DNA from: a virus
Lineage: Duplodnaviria; Caudoviricetes
Direction: 5' to 3' (one strand)
DNA length: 54,808 nucleotides
Virus record (IMG/VR): IMGVR_UViG_3300044723_000730
Coordinates: 1-54,808 of that record
The notes beneath the pieces were generated by a model. The model saw nothing but the letters and a program-made list of their open reading frames with translations, did not search any database and was not told where the DNA came from. Below are positions 3,298 through 34,133 of the stretch, in pieces. Each line of letters starts with the position of its first letter. Position 1 is the first letter of the stretch. Position numbers and translations under genes: made by a program.

Positions 3298-4206
3298 ATG
3301 GCTATTTCAAGAGCGCAACTCCTTAAGGAGCTACTACCGGGCCTAAACGCCCTATTTGGCCTCGAATACGCTAAGTATGGCGATGAGGCTGCTGAAATCT
3401 TCGAGACTGAATCTTCGGAACGGTCTTTCGAGGAAGAAACCAAGTTGTCCGGTTTCAGTGCTGCACCTGTTAAAGGTGAGGGTTCTGCAATCTCTTATGA
3501 CAACGCGCAAGAAGCTTGGACTGCTCGTTACACACACGAGACAGTCGCTATGGGCTTTTCGCTGACTGAGGAAGCAATCGAAGATAACCTCTACGATTCT
3601 CTTTCTTCTCGCTATACAAAGGCACTTGCCCGCGCTATGGCGTACACCAAGCAAACCAAAGGCGCTGCTATTCTTAACAACGCTTTTGCTGCCGGTACTA
3701 CATATGGTGATGGACAGACTCTCTGTTCCACTGCTCACCCTCTAGTATCTGGTGGTACTAACTCAAACCGTCCTGCTGTTGCGGCTGACCTTAACGAAGC
3801 TTCTCTTGAAGCGGCTGTTATCCAGATCGCTGGTTGGACTGATGAGCGTGGTCTGCTTATCGCAGCTAAGCCTTCTAAGCTGGTTATCCCACCTGCGCTG
3901 CAATTCGTTGCAACACGTTTGTTGGATTCCGAGCTTCGTCCGGGCACAGCGGATAACGACATCAATGCCATGAACAACAACGGTACAATTCCGGGTGGTT
4001 ACACAGTTAACAACTACCTGACTGATACCAATGCTTGGTTCTTGATGACCGACATCCCGAATGGCCTGAAGCACTTTGTCCGCTCTCCAATGCAAACCAG
4101 CATGGATGCAGACTTTGACACAGGTAACAGCCGATATAAGGCTCGTGAGCGATACAGCTTCGGCGTATCTGACCCACTGGGCATCTTCGGTTCACCCGGC
4201 GCTTAA
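3298..4206 (+). CDS. major capsid protein (HK97 fold)
   Basis: AAGGAGG RBS; MAISRAQLLKELLPGLNALFG...EEAIEDNLYD...DFDTGNSRYKARERYSFGVSDPLG pattern; followed by a terminator. Confidence 0.9.
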   Translation: MAISRAQLLKELLPGLNALFGLEYAKYGDEAAEIFETESSERSFEEETKLSGFSAAPVKGEGSAISYDNAQEAWTARYTHETVAMGFSLTEEAIEDNLYDSLSSRYTKALARAMAYTKQTKGAAILNNAFAAGTTYGDGQTLCSTAHPLVSGGTNSNRPAVAADLNEASLEAAVIQIAGWTDERGLLIAAKPSKLVIPPALQFVATRLLDSELRPGTADNDINAMNNNGTIPGGYTVNNYLTDTNAWFLMTDIPNGLKHFVRSPMQTSMDADFDTGNSRYKARERYSFGVSDPLGIFGSPGA

Positions 4207-4233
4207 TAAGCAAAAGGTAGATGTGGGTAGATT

Positions 4234-4257
4234 GGGGGCTTCGGCCCCCTTTCTTTT
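4234..4257 (+). terminator. Rho-independent terminator after the capsid gene
   Basis: GGGGGC-TTCG-GCCCCC followed by TTTCTTTT. Confidence 0.9.
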
Positions 4258-4259
4258 GT

Positions 4260-4290
4260 TTGTACAAAACTAGTTTACGTGATATATACT
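4260..4290 (+). promoter_or_regulatory. possible sigma70-type promoter
   Basis: TTGTAC (4260) with TG-A-TATATA at 17 bp spacing, or TATACT at 4285-4290; restarts transcription after the terminator. Confidence 0.4.
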
Positions 4291-4298
4291 AGAGTATA

Positions 4299-4375
4299 CC
4301 GAGGTCATTCGGTGTATCTGACAGTCTCGGCTGACGACATGCAGACGGATACACCCCACAAATTAACTCGCATGT
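4299..4375 (+). ncRNA. structured, pseudoknotted leader RNA candidate
   Basis: Three interleaved helices: 4299-4304/4325-4330, 4311-4320/4346-4355, 4337-4342/4370-4375; the last abuts the GAGGA RBS. Confidence 0.6.
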
Positions 4376-4386
4376 GAGGAATTAAA

Positions 4387-4863
4387 ATGGGTACCACTAC
4401 CTTTTCTGGCCCCGTCAAAGCGGGCACTATTTCAAATACTACCGGGACAACTCTCGGTGAAGACGTGAAAAACACGGGCCAAGTAACTATGGCTCAGACT
4501 TTTTCCACCGGAACTGCGCTTGCGGATGGAGCTTCTGCTGCGAATGACACTACTGTAGTTATTCCTGCTAACTCTCAAATTGTTGACATTGTAATAGACT
4601 GCCCTACAGCTATGGCGGGCGCTACAGCAGTGTTGAGTGTGGGAGATACTGTCGGTGGCAACGCTACGTTTATCAATACTTTTTCCATCACAGTCGCTTC
4701 TGGGGCAGGTCGAAAGTACCCTACAACTGAAGCTGGTGGTGCCCTTTCTTGGGCTGACATTGGGACTGCGGATAAAAAGCTGACTTGGACTACCACCGGA
4801 GCTACTACTGGCGGCGAAATCAGAGTAACTGTTCTGTATCAACAAAACATTAATCTCGCCTAA
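4387..4863 (+). CDS. virion structural (decoration-like) protein
   Basis: GAGGA RBS; MGTTTFSGPVKAG start; IPANSQIVDI motif; Thr/Gly-rich beta protein. Confidence 0.65.
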   Translation: MGTTTFSGPVKAGTISNTTGTTLGEDVKNTGQVTMAQTFSTGTALADGASAANDTTVVIPANSQIVDIVIDCPTAMAGATAVLSVGDTVGGNATFINTFSITVASGAGRKYPTTEAGGALSWADIGTADKKLTWTTTGATTGGEIRVTVLYQQNINLA

Positions 4864-4897
4864 ATTGGGTTATTAACCTTTAAACTAGGAGATTTAA

Positions 4898-5305
4898 ATG
4901 GCTGATACAGTAACGACTCAAATAATCCAAGACGGCGCACGTCAAGCGATCATTAAAGTCAACACTGCTGTGGGTAACACCGATGTAGTAACGTCTACGA
5001 TGGTGGATGTGTCTACGTTGAGTGCAGACCCTGTTAGCAGGAGAGCCTGCACTGGCGTTGTTTTGGCAAAACTTGTGTATGTAGGTGTTGGAGTGGGGGT
5101 CAAACTAGAATGGGATGCTACGGCTAATACCCTTATTTTTGATCTGCCAGTAAACTGGACGGAAGAGTACGATTTTTCTGACTTTACCGGGATACCCAAC
5201 AACTCTGGTGCTGGCAAGACAGGGGACATAGTAGCGACTACTGTATCTCCTAGTGGTGGTGATACGTACTCTTTTATATTTACTTTAAATAAGCAATATG
5301 GCTAA
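4898..5305 (+). CDS. putative virion protein
   Basis: AGGAG RBS; beta-rich; GAGKTGDI motif. Confidence 0.6.
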   Translation: MADTVTTQIIQDGARQAIIKVNTAVGNTDVVTSTMVDVSTLSADPVSRRACTGVVLAKLVYVGVGVGVKLEWDATANTLIFDLPVNWTEEYDFSDFTGIPNNSGAGKTGDIVATTVSPSGGDTYSFIFTLNKQYG

Positions 5306-11210: not shown

Positions 11211-12689
11211 ATGAGTAATCTATCGGAGTTATTACCCTCCGGTGGAGGGCAGAACGTAGTTGAGTTCACGGCCAGCGGCACGGTGGCTTCTGGTAAGCCC
11301 GTTATTCTGAATGCTAATGGGACGGTTACTGAGGTTGCTGGAACAACTGTAAGTCAGGGCGCTGGTAGTAATGCTACGTTTGAATCAGCCAGTATTACCT
11401 ATAGTGAAGTAGCTTATGACACGGCTAATAATAAATTTGTCTATATTTATTCTGACGCTGGTAATTCTTCATATGGCACAGCCGTTGTAGGTACGGTATC
11501 CGGTACGTCTATATCTTTTGGTAGTCCAGTTGTTTTTGAATCTGCTTTTGTTCGTTATACAGGTGTTGTTTATGACAGCAATTCAGGAAAAATTGTTATT
11601 GTTTATCAGGATCAAGCCAATACAGAAAAAGGAACAGCTATTGTAGGTACGGTGTCTGGAACATCTATTTCCTTCGGGTCTGCGGCTCTATTTAACAACG
11701 GAATCACTACGTGGATAAGCGCAGCATTTGATTCTACTAATAATAAGGTAGTTGTCGTTTACCAAGATGAATCTAATAGCAATCAAGGAACTGGAGTCGT
11801 TGGAACAGTATCTGGGACATCTATATCTTTTGGTTCAGAGGCAATATTTAACACAGGTACTTCAGGCTCTAACTATACTTCTACTACTTACGATAGCGGA
11901 AATGGAAAAATTGTTGTTGCTTTTCAAGACAAAAGTAATAGCAGTTATGGCACTGCGGCTGTAGGAACGGTGAGCGGTACAAGTATTTCTTGGGGAAGTA
12001 AGGTTGTATATCACAATGCGGGTTCTTGCGATGAAACAAGCATTGCGTATGACTCTGATTCTGGGAAAGTAATTGTAGCGTGTCGTTATGAAACTAATTT
12101 AGATCACGGCATTACTTATGTAGGAACTGTTTCTGGCACATCAATAAGTTTTGGGTCTCTAACTACTTTTAATTCGGGTACAACAAATGAAATGAAATTG
12201 GTGTATGACCCTAATGCACAGCTAATCACCGCTTTTTATAGAGACGGTTCTTCGTCATCATATCTAAAAGCAAATACAGGAACAGTGTCGGGCACATCAA
12301 TTACTTGGGGTACAGAATTTGCATTAAAAAACTATATTGCTACATACATAGGAGCAGAATACGACCCTGACAGTAAACAAATAGGTGTTGGGTATAGAAA
12401 TAATAGTATTGCAAATTATGGTTATGCTGTTATGTACCAAAATCCCTACACAAGCACAAACCTCACCGCCGCCTCCTTCATCGGCCTAGCCTCTGCTGCT
12501 ATATCCGACACCGCATCTGGTGACATCAACGTCAAGGGTGGCATTAACGAAGCCCAGACAGGGCTGACTATTGGCTCTGACTACTACGTTCAGACAGACG
12601 GCACTCTTGCAACTACGGCGGATGACCCTTCAGTCAAAGTCGGCCAAGCAATCTCCGCAACCACAATTAACATGATGGATTTGACATGA
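11211..12689 (+). CDS. repeat-rich spike/receptor-binding protein, paralog 1
   Basis: Repeats GTAxVGTVSGTSISFGS and YDxxxxKxV at ~50-aa period (propeller-like). Confidence 0.7.
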   Translation: MSNLSELLPSGGGQNVVEFTASGTVASGKPVILNANGTVTEVAGTTVSQGAGSNATFESASITYSEVAYDTANNKFVYIYSDAGNSSYGTAVVGTVSGTSISFGSPVVFESAFVRYTGVVYDSNSGKIVIVYQDQANTEKGTAIVGTVSGTSISFGSAALFNNGITTWISAAFDSTNNKVVVVYQDESNSNQGTGVVGTVSGTSISFGSEAIFNTGTSGSNYTSTTYDSGNGKIVVAFQDKSNSSYGTAAVGTVSGTSISWGSKVVYHNAGSCDETSIAYDSDSGKVIVACRYETNLDHGITYVGTVSGTSISFGSLTTFNSGTTNEMKLVYDPNAQLITAFYRDGSSSSYLKANTGTVSGTSITWGTEFALKNYIATYIGAEYDPDSKQIGVGYRNNSIANYGYAVMYQNPYTSTNLTAASFIGLASAAISDTASGDINVKGGINEAQTGLTIGSDYYVQTDGTLATTADDPSVKVGQAISATTINMMDLT

Positions 12690-28214: not shown

Positions 28215-31200
28215 ATGCCCTTAGCCAAGACGCGTGACCCATCTGGGGAAGAGTTTCAGTATTATGTACCTAAAGGCACAACTTCAGAAGAACGGAAAGC
28301 CCTAGCTAGAGCCGCCTACTTCAAAAGACGCCAAGGTATAGACGTAACTCAACCCCCGCTCCCGCCTGAAAGTACTGTGGGTGGGGAGCTTATGCGTGGC
28401 GCAGAATCACTCGCGTCGGCTTTACGCACTACTGCTGGAGCCGTACTGGGTGACGAAGAAGCAGCGGCCCTTGCTGCACTAGAGCGTAGTGAAGACATTG
28501 GGCAAAAATACGGCGAAGGCCCATCTTTCCAAGCTGTGCGTGAGGCTGAAGGTGTTCTACCTACTATCAGCACCGCGCTAGGACAGATACCACGGGCTTT
28601 AGCGGGGCAAGGTGCCCAGTTAGGCGCTACCGCAGCAGGTGCAGCTACAGGTGCTAGACTAGGTGCTCGATTCGGCCCAACAGGTGCAGTCGTAGGCGGT
28701 GGTCTAGGCGCACTAACTTCCCTCATACCGCAATTTGCTGGCTACAACATTGAACGTCAGGCTGAAGCAGACATAGCCGAGGGGCGTCCTGTAGACATTG
28801 ATACAGGGAAAGCACTAGGAACTGCTGCACTACAGGCTGTGCCGGAACTAGCAGGGCAGTACTTTATATTAGGCCGAGGCGTCATCAACAAGATACTCAA
28901 AGGGGGCCTTGGTGATACGACTGAAGCTGTAGCTAGGGGCAACGCAGAGAAGCTCATACAGACAGCACGGGAAAAATTACTCCCAAGCCTTAAAAAAGGC
29001 GAACGTGGTGTAGGTGCTATAGGTCGTGGTATCGCTACCGGTGCTGCTGCGGAGATACCTACAGAAGTAGCACAACAAGTTCTGGAAAGAGCACAAGCTG
29101 GTCTGGATGTACTGTCTGAAGAAGCCTTAGCAGAATACGGCGAAGCTGCGTATCTGGCAGCAACGATAGGCGGCACTCTTGGCCCCATCGGTACTATATC
29201 TGGTCGAAGTGCCGCAAGGCGGCAGCGTGAAGAACTAGCGGCTCGTACAGGGGAAGTACCCACTGAACCAACAGTAGAACCAGAAGCAGAAGTTGTAGAG
29301 ATAGTTGAGGAAGCCCCCGCTGAACCCCCTGCTGCACCACCAATAGAAACAGAAGTTGATCTTACTGAGTTAGGAGAAGCCTCTGCTGACATAGACGCAG
29401 ACGCTATTCAACAGCAAACTCTTCTTGCAGAAGAGCAAAGGCAATTAACCGCCGAACAAATCAGAAAAATACAGGAAGAAGATGTCAACTTTTTGGCAGG
29501 CGAGCCTGATCCCGATATTGAGTTTGACCAACCGTTTCTTGGAAGACCCGGAGAAGGTGTAACCGAGGAGCAAATACAGCAAGCGTATGCTGCCGAACAA
29601 GAAGCTACTGAGGAAGCGACTGAAGAAGCTCCTGTAACATGGGAGCAGGACATTGACCAACGAAATGCTGTTGATGAAGCTAAACGAAAAGAAGAGTTTG
29701 AAGCACTAACGGCGGAAGAACAAAAACCAACCGAAGTAGTCGAGCAAGAACAAAAAGTAGAAGCAACGGATTTAGAAACAGAAGCAGAGGCATCTACTGT
29801 AGCTCAAGACCCCGTGTCTGAAACTGTTAAAAAAGAAGAACAAGATGCAGAAATAGACGCACAAGTAGATGCGCCCCCTAGATACAGAACTAGCGCAAAA
29901 GTAGCAGTACAACGAGCGTTAGATGAAAAGAAGCAACGCCTCCAAGAGAGACAAGAGAACGTCGCTACTGCACAACAAGAACGGGTAGCCGCTACTGTCC
30001 CCACTGTAGAAGAAGCGGGTATAGACACAAAAACGTTAGCACAAAAGTTTGATATAGCTGAGACTGCGGCGGAAAGAGATTCACTTATATCTGGTATAGC
30101 TTTTAACAGCGTGTATGGCAAACCAGAAGCAAAAGCTACTGCATTAGCAGAAATAGCAGAGATAAGCACAAGCCCTGAATTTTCTGAGCAAATAAAAAGA
30201 GATGTAATCGCTGCCCAAAATAAAATAAGGCTTGATAATAATTTAGAGTTACCTGCCAAAGCTCTAGCTTCTACCTCAATGGGGTTAGAACCAGAAGTAA
30301 TGGAACTTCTTCGTGACGGTAGGTTGGTTGACGCTCTTGATACGTTGGGAAGGAACAAAGACAAGACTGTATCAAAAGTAGCCCGTGCTGTTAGTGCAGC
30401 CATATTAAAAGACGGTGGCACAAAAGTTACGCTTGAGTCTGGTTTGATGTCAACTGACGGGCGGCTGTTGGCTGGTACGTTTGATCCCAAGACCAACACG
30501 ATAATTATTAACAGTGATTTAAACCCCACCACTCATGTTCTTTTGCATGAGGCGCTTCATGCTGTCACTTCCCACGAGATAGCAAACAAGGCCAGCCCAA
30601 TAACCAAACAGCTACAGACACTTTTCGATAACGTCAAAGACAGACTTGATAGTTCTTATGGTGCTACTAGCTTAGATGAATTTGTAGCCGAAGCGTTTTC
30701 AAACCCAGAGTTCCAAGCAAAGCTTGCCTCTATGAACATCAAAGGCGAAAAGCTAGGTGCATGGGAAAGATTTACAAACATAATTAAAAATCTTGTTCGT
30801 AAAATACTAAAACAACCTATTGCCCAAGTAACTTCAGCGCGAAACGAAGTAGACAAACTAGTCACAGAGTTGATGTCACCGGCTCCAGAATATCGAGATG
30901 CAGCACGGTTAAACATGGCAGCTACAGCCAAAGAAGAAGGTAAACTGTTTGGGAACATACTAAACAGTTATGGTGGCCCTGTAACAACAGACATGATCAA
31001 CACGTACAACGACACCATGCCGGGGCTATCAAATACAGCCAGAGATTACTTCTTACGTGCGTTACCACTCAACTCTATTGCAGATTTTATTAAAGACAGC
31101 AATAACCCTGTATTAAGAGAGCTTGGAGCAGAGTTAGATGAGTTGTTTAAAGTCATCCAGCAAAAGAATGGGTCACGACAACTGTACCTACGTAGGACTA

Positions 31201-34133
31201 AAGATACTGCTAAACAACTAGATGCTGTATTCAAAGAGCTTGGTAAAGAACAACGCGATCTTTTTAACAAAGTTGTTATGGAAAGCACGTTGCGTCGTGT
31301 TGATCCTACTAAAGAAAGAAGTTACTACGAAGGTTTTCGATACAGCTATGTGGATCAGGATGGTAAAGAGTTTCGTTCCAAGCCATATAAAACAAAAGAG
31401 CTACGTGACGCTGCAAGAGAAGCAGACAAAGGTTTAGAGCGAGCCAAGAAAGAACATCCTACTGGTAATGTTGCGGTGGCTGTAACCAACCCAAGCGAAG
31501 GTAAGTTAGAAGAGTACACTCGCGTTAAAAATGACTTCAAAAAATTAAAACCTGAAGCGCGAAAAGCATATGAAACATTACGTGACGCTTATAGTGAAGC
31601 TTACACAGAGCTGAGAGTTACTATAGTAAACCGGATAAATGCTATCAAGACAGATACTGAGGAAGCAGTACAAGCAAAACAAGCTTACAAGGATAAGATA
31701 TTACTAGAACTTCTCAATAAAGAATCTATCGAGCCGTACTTCCCGCTGTATAGAAAGGGTGACTTCTGGTACAACCATATGGGCTTTGATCCATATACTA
31801 ATAACCCAGAAACTTTCAAAATTGCTTTTGAGTCTGACAAAGAACGACAAGCTTACGCAAGGTTGATTGAAAGTGACCCTGAGTTGAGACAACAAATCCT
31901 CAACAGCAAAGCAACAACTATAGTAGATATTAGAGAGGCTGCTAGAAAAGAGGCTTTGGATAGTGGTGCAACCCCTCAAGAAGCTGAAGAAGCAGCATTC
32001 AGGGCAGCGTTAGAACCAACATTTGCAGAACGCCCAACAAATGCTCGTGGAGAAAAGACTGCGGTAGACCTTCAGTGGGCGCAAGGGTTACTTGCTGATG
32101 TAAGACGTAAGAAAGATGCTGCTGGAGAAAGAGCCAAAGCTAAAGCTTTAGAAGATGGTTTAAGTGAAGCAGAAGCAGACAAAATAAAAGACCAAACACT
32201 GAGAGCCGGTAACGCTATAGATTCGATAGTACAGGATGCGTTGTTAGATGCTATGCCTGAACGATCTTTGGAGAGAGCTTTTAAGCGCAGACAGAACGTC
32301 CGTGGCGCACAGATGGACGCTATAGATGTATTCCGACAGCGTATGCCAGCTTTCTTAGGGCAGGTAGACAAGCTCAGATTTGACCAACCTCTCAGACAAA
32401 GACGCAATAACTTAGACGCTATTGCGAGCAAAGCAAGGAATACTCCGGACTTAGAGTACGCCAAACAAATAGCGAGAAAGGGTGGAGAGTATATAGACTT
32501 TGTTAATGACCCGCAGATAGCCACTTGGTCACGCGCTTTAAAGAGTGCGGGTTTCTTTATGACTTTGGGTTTTAACTTGTCTTCTGCTGTAGTCAACTCA
32601 TTTATCTTACCGGTTGTAGTGTTCCCATTCTTAGCCGGAAAGTACGGCATCGGGCCAGCTAGTGCCGCCATGTATCGCGCTATGCGGATGTATATGGGTA
32701 CCGGTATGCGTCGTAGACTAGAGCCATTCGGAGGAGCGCCCGAAGGTACGGAGTTTGATGGCCCATCATTAGCTAACCTCGACCCAGAAAACTTACCCGA
32801 AGAGTACAGGCAATATAAGCCACTAATAGAAGAACTTGTTTCCAGAGGAGCAGCTAACACTTCTACTGTAGGTGACATGCTTGATATAGATAACCCAATG
32901 GGTGGTCGCCTTGAAAGGGGTATGACTAGAGTTAACGGTATTTCAGGTTTCTTGTTCCACCAAGGCGAACGCTTAAATCGCCAAGTTACTGCAATGGCTA
33001 TTTATGATTTGGCAATGGATGCACAGAAAAAGAAGAACAAAGGTGCTGACATTACTGAAGAACAAAGAAACAAAATATTAGACGACGTGTTTCTCGATAT
33101 GGAACACACCAACAGTGGTGCGTTAATTGAGACTGCGCCTAAGCTTGCTCAAAGTAATATCGGCAGTGTGTTACTTATGTACAAACGCTTTGGTGTATCT
33201 ATGGCGTATCTCCAAGCCAAGATGGCAAGGCAAGCGTTGAAGATTGGTAACTACAGTGAAAAAGAAACTGCGGAGGCTAAGAAACAATTGGTTGGATTGT
33301 TCGGTATGTCCGGCCTACTGGCAGGAGTACAGGGGCTACCCGCATACGGCCTTATCGCTGGTGTAATGAATCAGTTCTTCTTGGATGATGAAGACGATGA
33401 CTTTGATAGTCTGGTTGCATCTTACATAGGAGAAGGCCCGTACTCTGGAGCACTAAACGAAATATTTGGCTTAGACATAGCCCCACGTATCGGTATGAGC
33501 AACTTATTGTTCAGAACACTACCAAACAAAGAGTATGAAAGTAATTTAGCGTACTGGGCTGAACTTGGTGGTGGCCCACTTCTTGGTATCGCACAAAGAA
33601 TGGATCGTAGCTATGACCTACTCATGGACGGAGAGTACCGCCGTGGTATAGAAGGATTTGTACCTTCGGGTTTAGGTGGCCCTCTGAGAAGCATTCGTTA
33701 TGCAACAGAGGGAGCCACTACGTTGCGTGGTGATCCTATCGTAGAGGATATGACCCCTTTATCTATCGCAGGACAATTTTTTGGGTTTGCTCCAGCAGGA
33801 TACATAAAACAGTTAGAGATCAACGCTCGTGATAAACGAATAGACCGTAAGATCAACGAAACTCGTACCAGACTTCTTCGTCAGAGATATGTAGCCTTTA
33901 GAGTAGGTGACTTTGAAGGTGTCCGCGACGTAGATCAAGAGATAAACGAGTTTAACCAACGTAACCCCGAGGTAAGAATTACTGGGGATACTAAGGCTAG
34001 GTCGTTACGACAACATAAGATTACTAGTCAAATAGCGCGTCAACTGGGTGGTATAACGATCAGCCCACGTAGGTTGGACAAAGTGATGCAAAAGAGACTA
34101 GAAGAGATGGGCGAAAGAGACTTTTTCTTGTAA
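28215..34133 (+). CDS. giant internal virion / polyvalent protein with zincin-like metallopeptidase motif
   Basis: 1972 aa; HEALH followed by EFVAE; Gly/Ala-rich membrane-like N-terminal helices; last gene of the late arm. Confidence 0.7.
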   Translation: MPLAKTRDPSGEEFQYYVPKGTTSEERKALARAAYFKRRQGIDVTQPPLPPESTVGGELMRGAESLASALRTTAGAVLGDEEAAALAALERSEDIGQKYGEGPSFQAVREAEGVLPTISTALGQIPRALAGQGAQLGATAAGAATGARLGARFGPTGAVVGGGLGALTSLIPQFAGYNIERQAEADIAEGRPVDIDTGKALGTAALQAVPELAGQYFILGRGVINKILKGGLGDTTEAVARGNAEKLIQTAREKLLPSLKKGERGVGAIGRGIATGAAAEIPTEVAQQVLERAQAGLDVLSEEALAEYGEAAYLAATIGGTLGPIGTISGRSAARRQREELAARTGEVPTEPTVEPEAEVVEIVEEAPAEPPAAPPIETEVDLTELGEASADIDADAIQQQTLLAEEQRQLTAEQIRKIQEEDVNFLAGEPDPDIEFDQPFLGRPGEGVTEEQIQQAYAAEQEATEEATEEAPVTWEQDIDQRNAVDEAKRKEEFEALTAEEQKPTEVVEQEQKVEATDLETEAEASTVAQDPVSETVKKEEQDAEIDAQVDAPPRYRTSAKVAVQRALDEKKQRLQERQENVATAQQERVAATVPTVEEAGIDTKTLAQKFDIAETAAERDSLISGIAFNSVYGKPEAKATALAEIAEISTSPEFSEQIKRDVIAAQNKIRLDNNLELPAKALASTSMGLEPEVMELLRDGRLVDALDTLGRNKDKTVSKVARAVSAAILKDGGTKVTLESGLMSTDGRLLAGTFDPKTNTIIINSDLNPTTHVLLHEALHAVTSHEIANKASPITKQLQTLFDNVKDRLDSSYGATSLDEFVAEAFSNPEFQAKLASMNIKGEKLGAWERFTNIIKNLVRKILKQPIAQVTSARNEVDKLVTELMSPAPEYRDAARLNMAATAKEEGKLFGNILNSYGGPVTTDMINTYNDTMPGLSNTARDYFLRALPLNSIADFIKDSNNPVLRELGAELDELFKVIQQKNGSRQLYLRRTKDTAKQLDAVFKELGKEQRDLFNKVVMESTLRRVDPTKERSYYEGFRYSYVDQDGKEFRSKPYKTKELRDAAREADKGLERAKKEHPTGNVAVAVTNPSEGKLEEYTRVKNDFKKLKPEARKAYETLRDAYSEAYTELRVTIVNRINAIKTDTEEAVQAKQAYKDKILLELLNKESIEPYFPLYRKGDFWYNHMGFDPYTNNPETFKIAFESDKERQAYARLIESDPELRQQILNSKATTIVDIREAARKEALDSGATPQEAEEAAFRAALEPTFAERPTNARGEKTAVDLQWAQGLLADVRRKKDAAGERAKAKALEDGLSEAEADKIKDQTLRAGNAIDSIVQDALLDAMPERSLERAFKRRQNVRGAQMDAIDVFRQRMPAFLGQVDKLRFDQPLRQRRNNLDAIASKARNTPDLEYAKQIARKGGEYIDFVNDPQIATWSRALKSAGFFMTLGFNLSSAVVNSFILPVVVFPFLAGKYGIGPASAAMYRAMRMYMGTGMRRRLEPFGGAPEGTEFDGPSLANLDPENLPEEYRQYKPLIEELVSRGAANTSTVGDMLDIDNPMGGRLERGMTRVNGISGFLFHQGERLNRQVTAMAIYDLAMDAQKKKNKGADITEEQRNKILDDVFLDMEHTNSGALIETAPKLAQSNIGSVLLMYKRFGVSMAYLQAKMARQALKIGNYSEKETAEAKKQLVGLFGMSGLLAGVQGLPAYGLIAGVMNQFFLDDEDDDFDSLVASYIGEGPYSGALNEIFGLDIAPRIGMSNLLFRTLPNKEYESNLAYWAELGGGPLLGIAQRMDRSYDLLMDGEYRRGIEGFVPSGLGGPLRSIRYATEGATTLRGDPIVEDMTPLSIAGQFFGFAPAGYIKQLEINARDKRIDRKINETRTRLLRQRYVAFRVGDFEGVRDVDQEINEFNQRNPEVRITGDTKARSLRQHKITSQIARQLGGITISPRRLDKVMQKRLEEMGERDFFL

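Follow-up and report, generated by a model that had tools for sequence, protein, structure and literature searches.

Genomic context of the leader

The window, that is, the whole 54,808-nucleotide stretch of DNA that was analysed (IMG/VR record IMGVR_UViG_3300044723_000730), comes from a virus record that is 89% complete. Its virion genes lie on the + strand and its DNA polymerase, helicase and primase genes on the - strand; no phage RNA polymerase was seen in the 30 ORFs scanned with PHROGs, a 1972-aa ORF lying outside that scan. The leader considered here stands between a capsid gene and the next virion gene, with all neighbouring genes on the + strand, and has the following surroundings.

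3298-4206, + strand: major capsid protein gene of the Mu-like gpT type, the upstream neighbour
4234-4259, + strand: intrinsic-terminator-like hairpin GGGGGCTTCGGCCCCC (hairpin 4234-4249) followed by a T run, from a consensus scan
about 4260-4290, + strand: promoter-like site, TTGTAC/TGTACA and then TGaTATATA/TATACT
4376-4380, + strand: Shine-Dalgarno sequence GAGGA
4387-4389, + strand: ATG of the downstream gene
4387-4863, + strand: gene for an acidic, beta-rich 158-aa protein, a probable capsid cement (decoration) protein

The ORF at 3298-4206 matches PHROG phrog_371, major head protein (E 7.4e-22), Pfam Phage_capsid_4 (E 4.3e-15) and, above the cut-off, Pfam Mu-like_gpT (E 1.8e-9), and the terminator-like hairpin that follows it recurs in relatives. 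The 158-aa protein encoded downstream matches no Pfam or PHROG family, and no nucleic-acid-binding family. Its homolog in Phage DSL-LC04, an uncultured phage (PMC10611076), carries the annotation 'cement protein'. This label agrees with the best Foldseek matches of an AlphaFold2 model of the window protein, chain H of the cyanophage Pam1 capsid (E 4.9e-4) and the trimeric cement protein of KHP40 (E 1.8e-3), which are taken as a hint only because the confidence of the model is low (pLDDT 61.3). The gene product thus looks like a jelly-roll capsid cement protein. With a pI of 4.43 and only seven lysine and arginine residues among its 158, it is a poor candidate for autogenous RNA binding because of its acidity.

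A possible promoter had been placed just upstream of the RNA in a preliminary description of this DNA, and a promoter-like site is present at 4261-4290; its score of 9/12 is no more than the expectation from regional shuffles. The predicted transcript start would fall at about 4293-4298. Contigs assembled from RNA libraries also fall in this region, X17 and X18 (two studies) overlaying 4297/4310-4380 and X16 covering 4449-5288; they were not counted, because contigs show no starts, strand or level and DNA was possibly present in the libraries.

Three interlocked helices between the promoter-like site and the Shine-Dalgarno sequence

Three helices can be drawn on the + strand between 4299 and 4375. 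P1 (CCGAGG with TCTCGG) comprises five Watson-Crick pairs and one G.U pair, P2 (GGTGTATCTG with CGGATACACC) nine Watson-Crick pairs and one U.G pair, and P3 (ACATGC with GCATGT) six Watson-Crick pairs. Read from the sequence of 3900-4700, their strands follow one another along the RNA in the order P1, P2, P1', P3, P2', P3', and all three were found exactly where the preliminary description had located them, the interlocked order included. With a and b denoting the 5' and 3' strand of each helix, the leader is composed as follows.

4299-4304, + strand: P1a, CCGAGG, partner 4325-4330
4305-4310, + strand: linker L1, from P1a to the outer end of P2
4311-4320, + strand: P2a, partner 4346-4355
4321-4324, + strand: junction ACAG, in which A4321 faces A4345, C4322 pairs with G4344, and AG leads into P1b
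4325-4330, + strand: P1b, TCTCGG
4331-4336, + strand: junction CTGACG, with the central GAC at 4333-4335
4337-4342, + strand: P3a, ACATGC, partner 4370-4375
4343-4345, + strand: junction AGA, in which G4344 pairs with C4322 and A4345 faces A4321
4346-4355, + strand: P2b
4356-4369, + strand: linker L2, A-rich, from the outer end of P2 back to P3b
4370-4375, + strand: P3b, GCATGT

P3b ends at 4375 and the GAGGA begins at 4376, so that P3 adjoins the ribosome-binding site as had been claimed, while the Shine-Dalgarno sequence and ATG of the window lie outside all three helices. The junction words to which attention had been drawn are likewise present, as CTGAC at 4318-4322, CTGAC at 4331-4335 and CAGAC at 4342-4346, and they are conserved in relatives.

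A constrained three-helix search of our own, with gap limits that were set after seeing the data and were identical for the shuffles, gives the window leader a score of 55, compared with a mean of 14.5 and a maximum of 45 for 500 dinucleotide shuffles, none of which (0/500) reaches it. For six leaders from other sequence groups (see below), 0 or 1 of 500 shuffles reach the leader's own score. Nested folding of the window leader gives no signal (z = -1.04, with 27 of 200 shuffles folding equally well), though a program unable to draw pseudoknots is an unsuitable test. At the nested energy minimum (-25.4 kcal/mol), 4295-4303 pairs with 4308-4316, a rival hairpin conserved among close kin only, which was set aside. 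The summed single-helix energies of P2, P1 and P3 (-12.8, -5.7 and -5.6 kcal/mol) are no more than comparable with a nested minimum of -22.3 kcal/mol.

Relatives of the leader and their common plan

Relatives were fetched from IMG/VR with the downstream 158-aa protein as query. In the first scan 472 of the 600 pattern matches listed encode a relative, so that there are at least 472, and the best 80 were kept; two further scans were queried with more distant members, each scan giving at least 600 matches and at least 472-585 relatives, of which the best 80 were kept. The 218 loci with enough upstream sequence, together with the window, yield 107 distinct leaders, namely 42 of the complex, three-helix form, 55 of a simple form with a local hairpin (51 distinct cores and four repeating a core), one simple leader without the hairpin and nine reduced forms. 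Two further complex groups come from the GenBank metagenome-assembled phages DSL-LC04 and MW202675. The total complex set is therefore 44 distinct leaders in seven sequence groups, A-G, in which all three helices are kept and the sequences differ. All of these leaders precede homologs of the same gene, the loci having been chosen through that gene, and the complex element is conserved across many uncultured aquatic phages. One group occurs on a contig of a Pelagibacteraceae-labelled assembly; the labels of metagenome-assembled genomes for ten contig matches are scattered over phyla and, the Pelagibacteraceae hint excepted, were not taken as hosts.

A single plan, P1a-L1-P2a-A-C-NN-P1b-(N)N-GAC-N-P3a-(A)-G-A-P2b-L2-P3b-RBS, fits 44/44 complex leaders. 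The anchors A-C and G-A (G-G in two) are present in every one of them, as the parse required. Neither the first nor the third GAC word is a free junction. Their A residues lie opposite one another, between the innermost P2 pair, which joins the G of the first word to the C of the third, and one further pair, formed by the remaining C and G. Where the innermost P2 pair has changed, both words change with it, as in the AAC with GAT of four group D leaders, and DSL-LC04 has TAC with GAA at these two words. The loop closed by P2 measures 21-22 nt in 40 of the 44 leaders, and a central GAC, for which the parse took whichever GAC lay closest to the centre of the loop closed by P2, stands near the middle in all 44; in the 21-nt loops that were read out (the window and group D) it starts at loop position 11. 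L1 varies from 5 to 13 nt across groups and consists of 44% A and 42% U (86% A+U), and L2, at 4-22 nt as detected in the 44 leaders, of 50% A and 8% G. The distance from the 3' end of P3b to the ATG is 11-12 nt in 38/44 leaders and 13-15 nt in four, the values of 0 and 8 being helix-detection slips; the 5' edge of the Shine-Dalgarno sequence is therefore where the fold always stops, and in the complex forms this sequence is only abutted, or overlapped by 0-3 nt.

Model R1, which holds P1 and P3 and was made from alignment A2 (below), has its only match in the whole window at 4295-4389. It is too group-specific for wider use, just 19 leaders being found with it among 100 sources at E up to 1. 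A second run of CTGAC..CTGAC..AGAC at 12564-12599 of the window lies inside the ORF 11211-12689 and was taken as chance.

Covariation of the three helices

The three interlocked helices are real and go beyond chance. In alignment A2, made with MAFFT without structure from 13 leaders of groups A-C including that of the window, 94.6% of P2 cells are paired with both sides changed in 5/10 pairs, and P3 is 100% paired with both sides changed in 2/6 pairs. The covariation score of 0.340 compares with 0.184 for shuffles, none of 500 of which reach it, and with at most 0.118 when partners are slid, and RNAalifold applied to the same alignment selects P2 unaided. P1 pairing is just 64% in A2 because MAFFT slips one column in group C. 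Alignment A3 comprises 26 AT-rich leaders (23 distinct) of group D; here P1 and P2 are 100% paired, with both-side changes in 7/8 P2 pairs and 1/7 P1 pairs. When 19 matches were aligned to the model holding P1 and P3 only (A4), P2, which is absent from that model, proved to be 88.8% paired with both sides changed in 8/11 pairs, and P1 was 74.6% paired, with register slips of the model. A single MAFFT alignment of 42 complex leaders (A1) was dropped because group D was out of register with groups A-C. Model R2, which was made from A3 and holds P2 only, left P3b in two registers, and for this reason no P3 count was taken on alignment A7.

Read instead from the anchors of each leader, P2 shows 327 Watson-Crick pairs, 15 G.U, 1 A.C and 9 other combinations at 352 places (44 leaders by 8 positions), with three to eight base combinations at every position. 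The excess of G.U over A.C indicates a structure formed by + strand RNA. Pairing the strands of one leader with those of another shows how each group keeps its own solution, since mean helix length within groups compared with between groups is 6.41 and 3.52 for P1, 7.16 and 1.52 for P2, and 5.82 and 3.90 for P3. There are 14 versions of P1 among the 44 leaders, all complementary, and 13 detected versions of P3, counting that of L196, which is a detection slip. That P1 is fully paired in all the groups is a result of our own per-sequence parse, which seeks the best helix, and P3 in group D is likewise read from our per-leader parse. Covariation in homologous leaders had been named beforehand as a test of the fold, and it is present for P1, P2 and P3 over the seven groups, so that the chained double pseudoknot first proposed from the window alone is borne out.

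A simpler form of the leader corresponds to the Mu-gpT-DE motif

When 14 loci were compared with Rfam at E up to 1, RF03012 (Mu-gpT-DE) was matched in 4/4 simple-type loci and 0/10 complex ones, and none of the 14 matched a riboswitch, ribozyme or ribosomal leader model. Two of the four exceed the gathering cut-off of 49 bits, namely L237 (Roseobacter phage CRP-901) with 72.3 bits and L225 with 66.4, and two fall below it (L118, 46.9 bits; L141, 36.6 bits). Near-complete simple-type genomes carry exactly one RF03012 match above the cut-off, at the leader site, in 5/5 cases. For the window, neither RF03012 nor any riboswitch or ribozyme model matches 4100-4600 at E up to 10, and over the whole genome RF03012 scores no higher than 13 bits, at 4876-4900, where the next gene has its ribosome-binding site.

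The RF03012 consensus consists of an outer helix of 4 bp and a hairpin, without a pseudoknot, and extends over GACAGGAG as far as the ATG. The outer helix corresponds to P2, so that the simple-form P2b is the Shine-Dalgarno sequence itself; the P2 position is filled in 44 complex and 52 simple leaders. The local hairpin of the simple form covaries strongly. In addition, the segment at the P3a position, mostly ACCCA, pairs over at least 4 bases with the start codon and codon 2 (TGGGT) in 52/52 simple leaders. This pairing is mostly invariant and is thus little informative, but variants do occur: a C-G to G-C swap in 6/52, codon 2 changing from GGT to GCT or GCG with AGCCA in the leader (three are unpaired); the same swap in L255, seen by eye; and an A-T to T-A swap in L162, where TCCCA stands with TGGGA. 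An alternative pairing of ACCCA with ATGGG of the hairpin loop reaches 4 bp or more in 22/52 leaders, and the start-codon pairing is preferred because the loop pairing ignores the AGCCA variants.

RF03012 resembles the window element in several respects. Both occupy the slot between a Mu-gpT-type capsid gene and a cement homolog; both carry the words CUGAC(AG), CUGAC and AGAC in this order (window 4318-4324, 4331-4335 and 4343-4346); in both the outer helix is closed by the GAC/GAC combinations G-C, A.A and C-G; and both are present in single copy, RF03012 once per genome and the window element as the lone match of R1. They differ in their wiring. Where RF03012 has a local hairpin between the first and second GAC, the window has 8 nt, AG and TCTCGG, and the TCTCGG (P1b) pairs instead with 4299-4304. 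The segment that in the simple form pairs with the start codon has in the window a dedicated partner strand that precedes the Shine-Dalgarno sequence. P2 of the window is 10 bp of unrelated sequence and leaves out the Shine-Dalgarno sequence, in contrast to RF03012, where that sequence makes up P2b. Both forms, simple and complex, thus share the slot, the words, P2 and the P2/P3 pseudoknot, and differ in the partnering of P1 and P3. On these sequence comparisons the window element is a re-wired, double-pseudoknot relative of Mu-gpT-DE that current Rfam models miss. The preliminary description had been unable to assign the RNA to any family, a statement that holds in so far as no Rfam model matches it in an Infernal-type search and gives way in so far as a relative, RF03012, occupies the same slot in related phages.

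The name Mu-gpT-DE is absent from the main text of PMC5737381, which we take to be the source of the motif. Full-text literature searches found no function for Mu-gpT-DE; the motif does appear in a list of RNAs given extra covarying pairs by another method. A catalogue of over ten thousand candidate RNAs from IMG/VR includes five candidates upstream of a major capsid protein family, as well as gp32 leader pseudoknots (PMC10690425).

Position of the fold in the transcript

In 21/44 complex and 47/52 simple leaders the first paired base is preceded, at a distance of 4-9 nt, by a TANNNT box, against a background of 10.4% at random positions. By group, the box is present in A 5/5, C 4/5, D 11/26 and F 1/1, and in none of the leaders of B (0/3), E (0/3) and G (0/1). 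Because of this -10-like box so close upstream, the transcript probably begins with the fold in many phages. In the leaders without a promoter box (groups B, E and G, and the simple leaders L141, L146 and L206) the fold comes directly after the capsid-gene hairpin, and it would therefore be internal to a longer transcript there, unless processed.

Discussion

The best explanation of 4299-4375 is a + strand RNA, located at the 5' end of the cement-protein mRNA or close to it, that folds as a compact double pseudoknot. In such a fold the 10-bp P2 would be central, extended by the A.A mismatch and C-G pair drawn from the first and third GAC words. Its 21-nt loop would give one strand each to P1 and P3, whose partners would come from the 5' and 3' tails, and L1 and L2 would have to run back along P2 to bring these partner strands to the loop. 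Judged from this connectivity, the two linkers would occupy the grooves of P2, in an arrangement in space that is itself inferred. Ending as it does at the Shine-Dalgarno sequence, the fold may act in cis on the initiation of cement-gene translation, either as an operator at which a putative bound factor blocks or admits the 30S subunit, or as a self-contained fold that by itself would set the initiation rate.

We favour this putative control of translation initiation, at about even confidence, because the position of the fold is fixed at the edge of the ribosome-binding site, because the simple form includes the Shine-Dalgarno sequence and start codon, because the copy is single and gene-specific, and because the unpaired bases are invariant. 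Within the list of functions offered in the preliminary description (a riboswitch-like or protein-responsive leader, a ribozyme or a structural RNA), it is the leader that fits best; the ribozyme is without support, and the arguments on a riboswitch are indirect. Several observations nevertheless weigh against such control. The Shine-Dalgarno sequence and ATG are outside the helices in the complex form, so that a block of the ribosome is not required; the cement protein, at its acidic pI, is unlike an RNA binder; the tight spacing to the ATG may in part be due to compaction of the genome; repression would be unexpected for a major virion protein; and nested folding prefers the rival hairpin. 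The main rival is a 5' stabiliser, in which the pseudoknot would bury the mRNA 5' end against decay by RNase E, RppH or RNase J, with no regulatory partner, and so raise the yield of a cement protein needed in hundreds of copies; we consider it possible but unlikely. 5'-terminal stem-loops do stabilise bacterial mRNAs, and both the -10-like box, which would start the transcript at the first helix in most simple and many complex leaders, and the compactness of a P2 presumably wrapped by L1 and L2 would suit such a role. The leaders of groups B, E and G and the three simple ones that lack the box speak against it, as the fold would be internal there unless processed; moreover, invariant unpaired bases and a fixed 11-12 nt to the ATG exceed what a stabiliser needs, and the simple-form fold pairs with the Shine-Dalgarno sequence and ATG. 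A riboswitch, in which the GAC-word junction would bind a small molecule or ion, stabilise the pseudoknot and lower or raise initiation, is rather improbable. Its helices would covary around invariant unpaired bases, as is seen, and the 3' strand of the pseudoknot reaches the ribosome-binding site, the simple form having the Shine-Dalgarno sequence in P2 and the start codon in P3; known pseudoknot-type translational switches likewise engage the ribosome-binding site. In SAM-II and preQ1-II, which are of this kind, a compact pseudoknot has an A-rich linker lying against a helix and extends with its 3' strand to the Shine-Dalgarno sequence; they resemble the window in the A-rich linker (compare the composition of L2). 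They have two helices, however, and the window three, and the window element is associated with a virion gene only and matches no such model. Furthermore, the gene served is a single structural one rather than a metabolic or transport gene (the loci having been chosen through it), there is one copy per genome, the complex form only abuts the Shine-Dalgarno sequence or overlaps it by 0-3 nt, no Rfam riboswitch model matches, and no ligand suggests itself from the context.

Explanations other than a leader fare worse against the same data. That Rfam files RF03012 as 'Gene; sRNA', that the element lies downstream of the capsid gene and that it often has a promoter-like box of its own would fit a small RNA acting in trans, or an element in the 3' part of the capsid mRNA. 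We regard either as very improbable, since the element lies after the capsid terminator, no terminator separates it from the ribosome-binding site of the next gene, the RF03012 consensus itself extends over the Shine-Dalgarno sequence as far as the ATG, covariation links the simple form to codon 2 of the gene downstream, and the distance to the ATG is fixed. It is highly improbable that the element is a self-cleaving ribozyme acting on the late transcript to process it between the capsid and cement genes, even though its core is pseudoknotted, with invariant unpaired bases, and its location within a longer transcript in groups B, E and G is one at which processing would be reasonable. HDV-like and twister ribozymes share with the window interlocked helices and few invariant unpaired bases, but the HDV-like ones have a whole hairpin where the window has 4 nt between P2a and P1b, and the double-pseudoknot ribozyme classes known to us possess extra helices that are absent from the window topology. 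No Rfam ribozyme model matches at E up to 10, the position at the ribosome-binding site argues against cleavage, and because the simple-form core holds the Shine-Dalgarno sequence and ATG, cleavage there would harm the message. Finally, P1 and P3 are of just 6 bp each and nested folding is no better than in shuffles, as would be expected of chance complementarity or of a DNA-level feature such as protein-binding inverted repeats, without RNA structure. This reading is scarcely credible given that no shuffle (0/500) reaches the triple score, that compensatory changes occur in all three helices over seven groups, and that G.U is tolerated and A.C is not (15 against 1).

If control of translation initiation is indeed the role of the fold, there are precedents for an operator of this general kind. 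The pseudoknot in the T4 gene 32 leader is close to the ribosome-binding site, and the pseudoknots of the S15 (rpsO) and S4 (alpha-operon) leaders, of which the S4 one is double, abut or include the ribosome-binding site and exert their effect on the 30S subunit during initiation. Like the window element, the gene 32 pseudoknot stands in the 5' leader of a phage gene, and gp32 regulates its own translation by binding it (PMC10690425). However, gp32 binds nucleic acid, in contrast to the acidic cement-like protein of the window, no sequence or model relation between the two leaders was seen, and the window element is a chained double pseudoknot of three helices. The S15 and S4 operators differ in helix order and sequence, belong to host genes and have known protein partners, and no Rfam ribosomal leader model matched. 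More speculatively, the GAC-word core may be a sensor, in which case these leaders would be riboswitches or protein operators of a new class, by which cement translation is coupled to a signal of the infected cell; we hold this to be unlikely. Equally tentative is the suggestion that one core is served by several wirings, with P1 made either as a hairpin or as a pseudoknot with the 5' tail and P3 formed through the start codon or through a dedicated strand.

With these results Mu-gpT-DE, an orphan motif filed as a small-RNA gene, is placed as the 5' leader of the cement gene, and its simple form gains a start-codon pseudoknot. At least seven complex versions exist, in which three interlocked helices have been rebuilt from unrelated sequence around a few fixed bases, and they provide a natural series for studying how much re-wiring one RNA core tolerates. 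Roseobacter phages CRP-901 and CRP-902 carry the cement-homolog gene, and CRP-901 the simple form; both are assumed to be cultured isolates because their records name a host strain and, if so, experiments are possible. The leader offers a testable case of post-transcriptional virion-gene control in abundant uncultured aquatic phages.

Variation among leaders of the cement gene

Reduced leaders, lying some 70 nt upstream of the start of the gene, are found at loci L089, L095, L096, L098, L099, L100, L104, L115, L174, L253 and L256, where two or three of the GAC words (the conserved CTGAC, CTGAC and AGAC of the core) are accompanied by a small hairpin at most. By eye, an upstream ACCCA-like word able to pair with the start-codon region is present in these leaders too. 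In many of the simple-type leaders, which take the local-hairpin form of Rfam family RF03012, the hairpin loop carries ATGGG or ATGGT (columns 26-30 of alignment A6 of these leaders), resembling the true start region ATGGGT. Such loops could act as competitors for the ACCCA segment, but they do not change along with the AGCCA variants, the simple leaders with an altered codon 2.

Other hairpins and motif matches

A competing 9-bp hairpin of -10.1 kcal/mol (window 4295-4303 with 4308-4316) overlaps the 5′ strand of helix P1 and the start of that of P2. Shorter counterparts (CCGG with CCGG, GGAA with TTCC) are present in groups A and C of the complex, double-pseudoknot leaders, and the hairpin may represent a folding intermediate or a chance pairing.

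The strong GC hairpin GTGAGCTCC TTCG GGAGCTCAC, found at L122 (1968-2031) and L175 (1343-1407) just upstream of the next gene after the cement gene, is matched weakly by R2, the P2-only covariance model built from the group D alignment; it is an element distinct from the leader fold.

Within the window, a second CTGAC..CTGAC..AGAC match was taken as chance, and a weak RF03012 match (13 bits, E 0.09) is simply the ribosome-binding site of the next gene (CTAGGAGATTTAAATG). Elsewhere in the genome of a simple-type phage (L244), RF03012 matches G002:C1:33730-33785 at a sub-threshold 16.8 bits (E 0.0076). The window features are:

4876-4900: weak RF03012 match
12564-12599: second motif match, inside the 492-aa ORF 11211-12689
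28215-34133, + strand: 1972-aa ORF

Possible host of the group D phages

L251 (about 1030-1113) is an AT-rich complex leader of group D on a 35.8-kb contig whose assembly is labelled Pelagibacteraceae. The remaining MAG labels are spread over several phyla, a scatter that is probably binning noise. The Pelagibacteraceae label points tentatively to SAR11 as the host of these phages.
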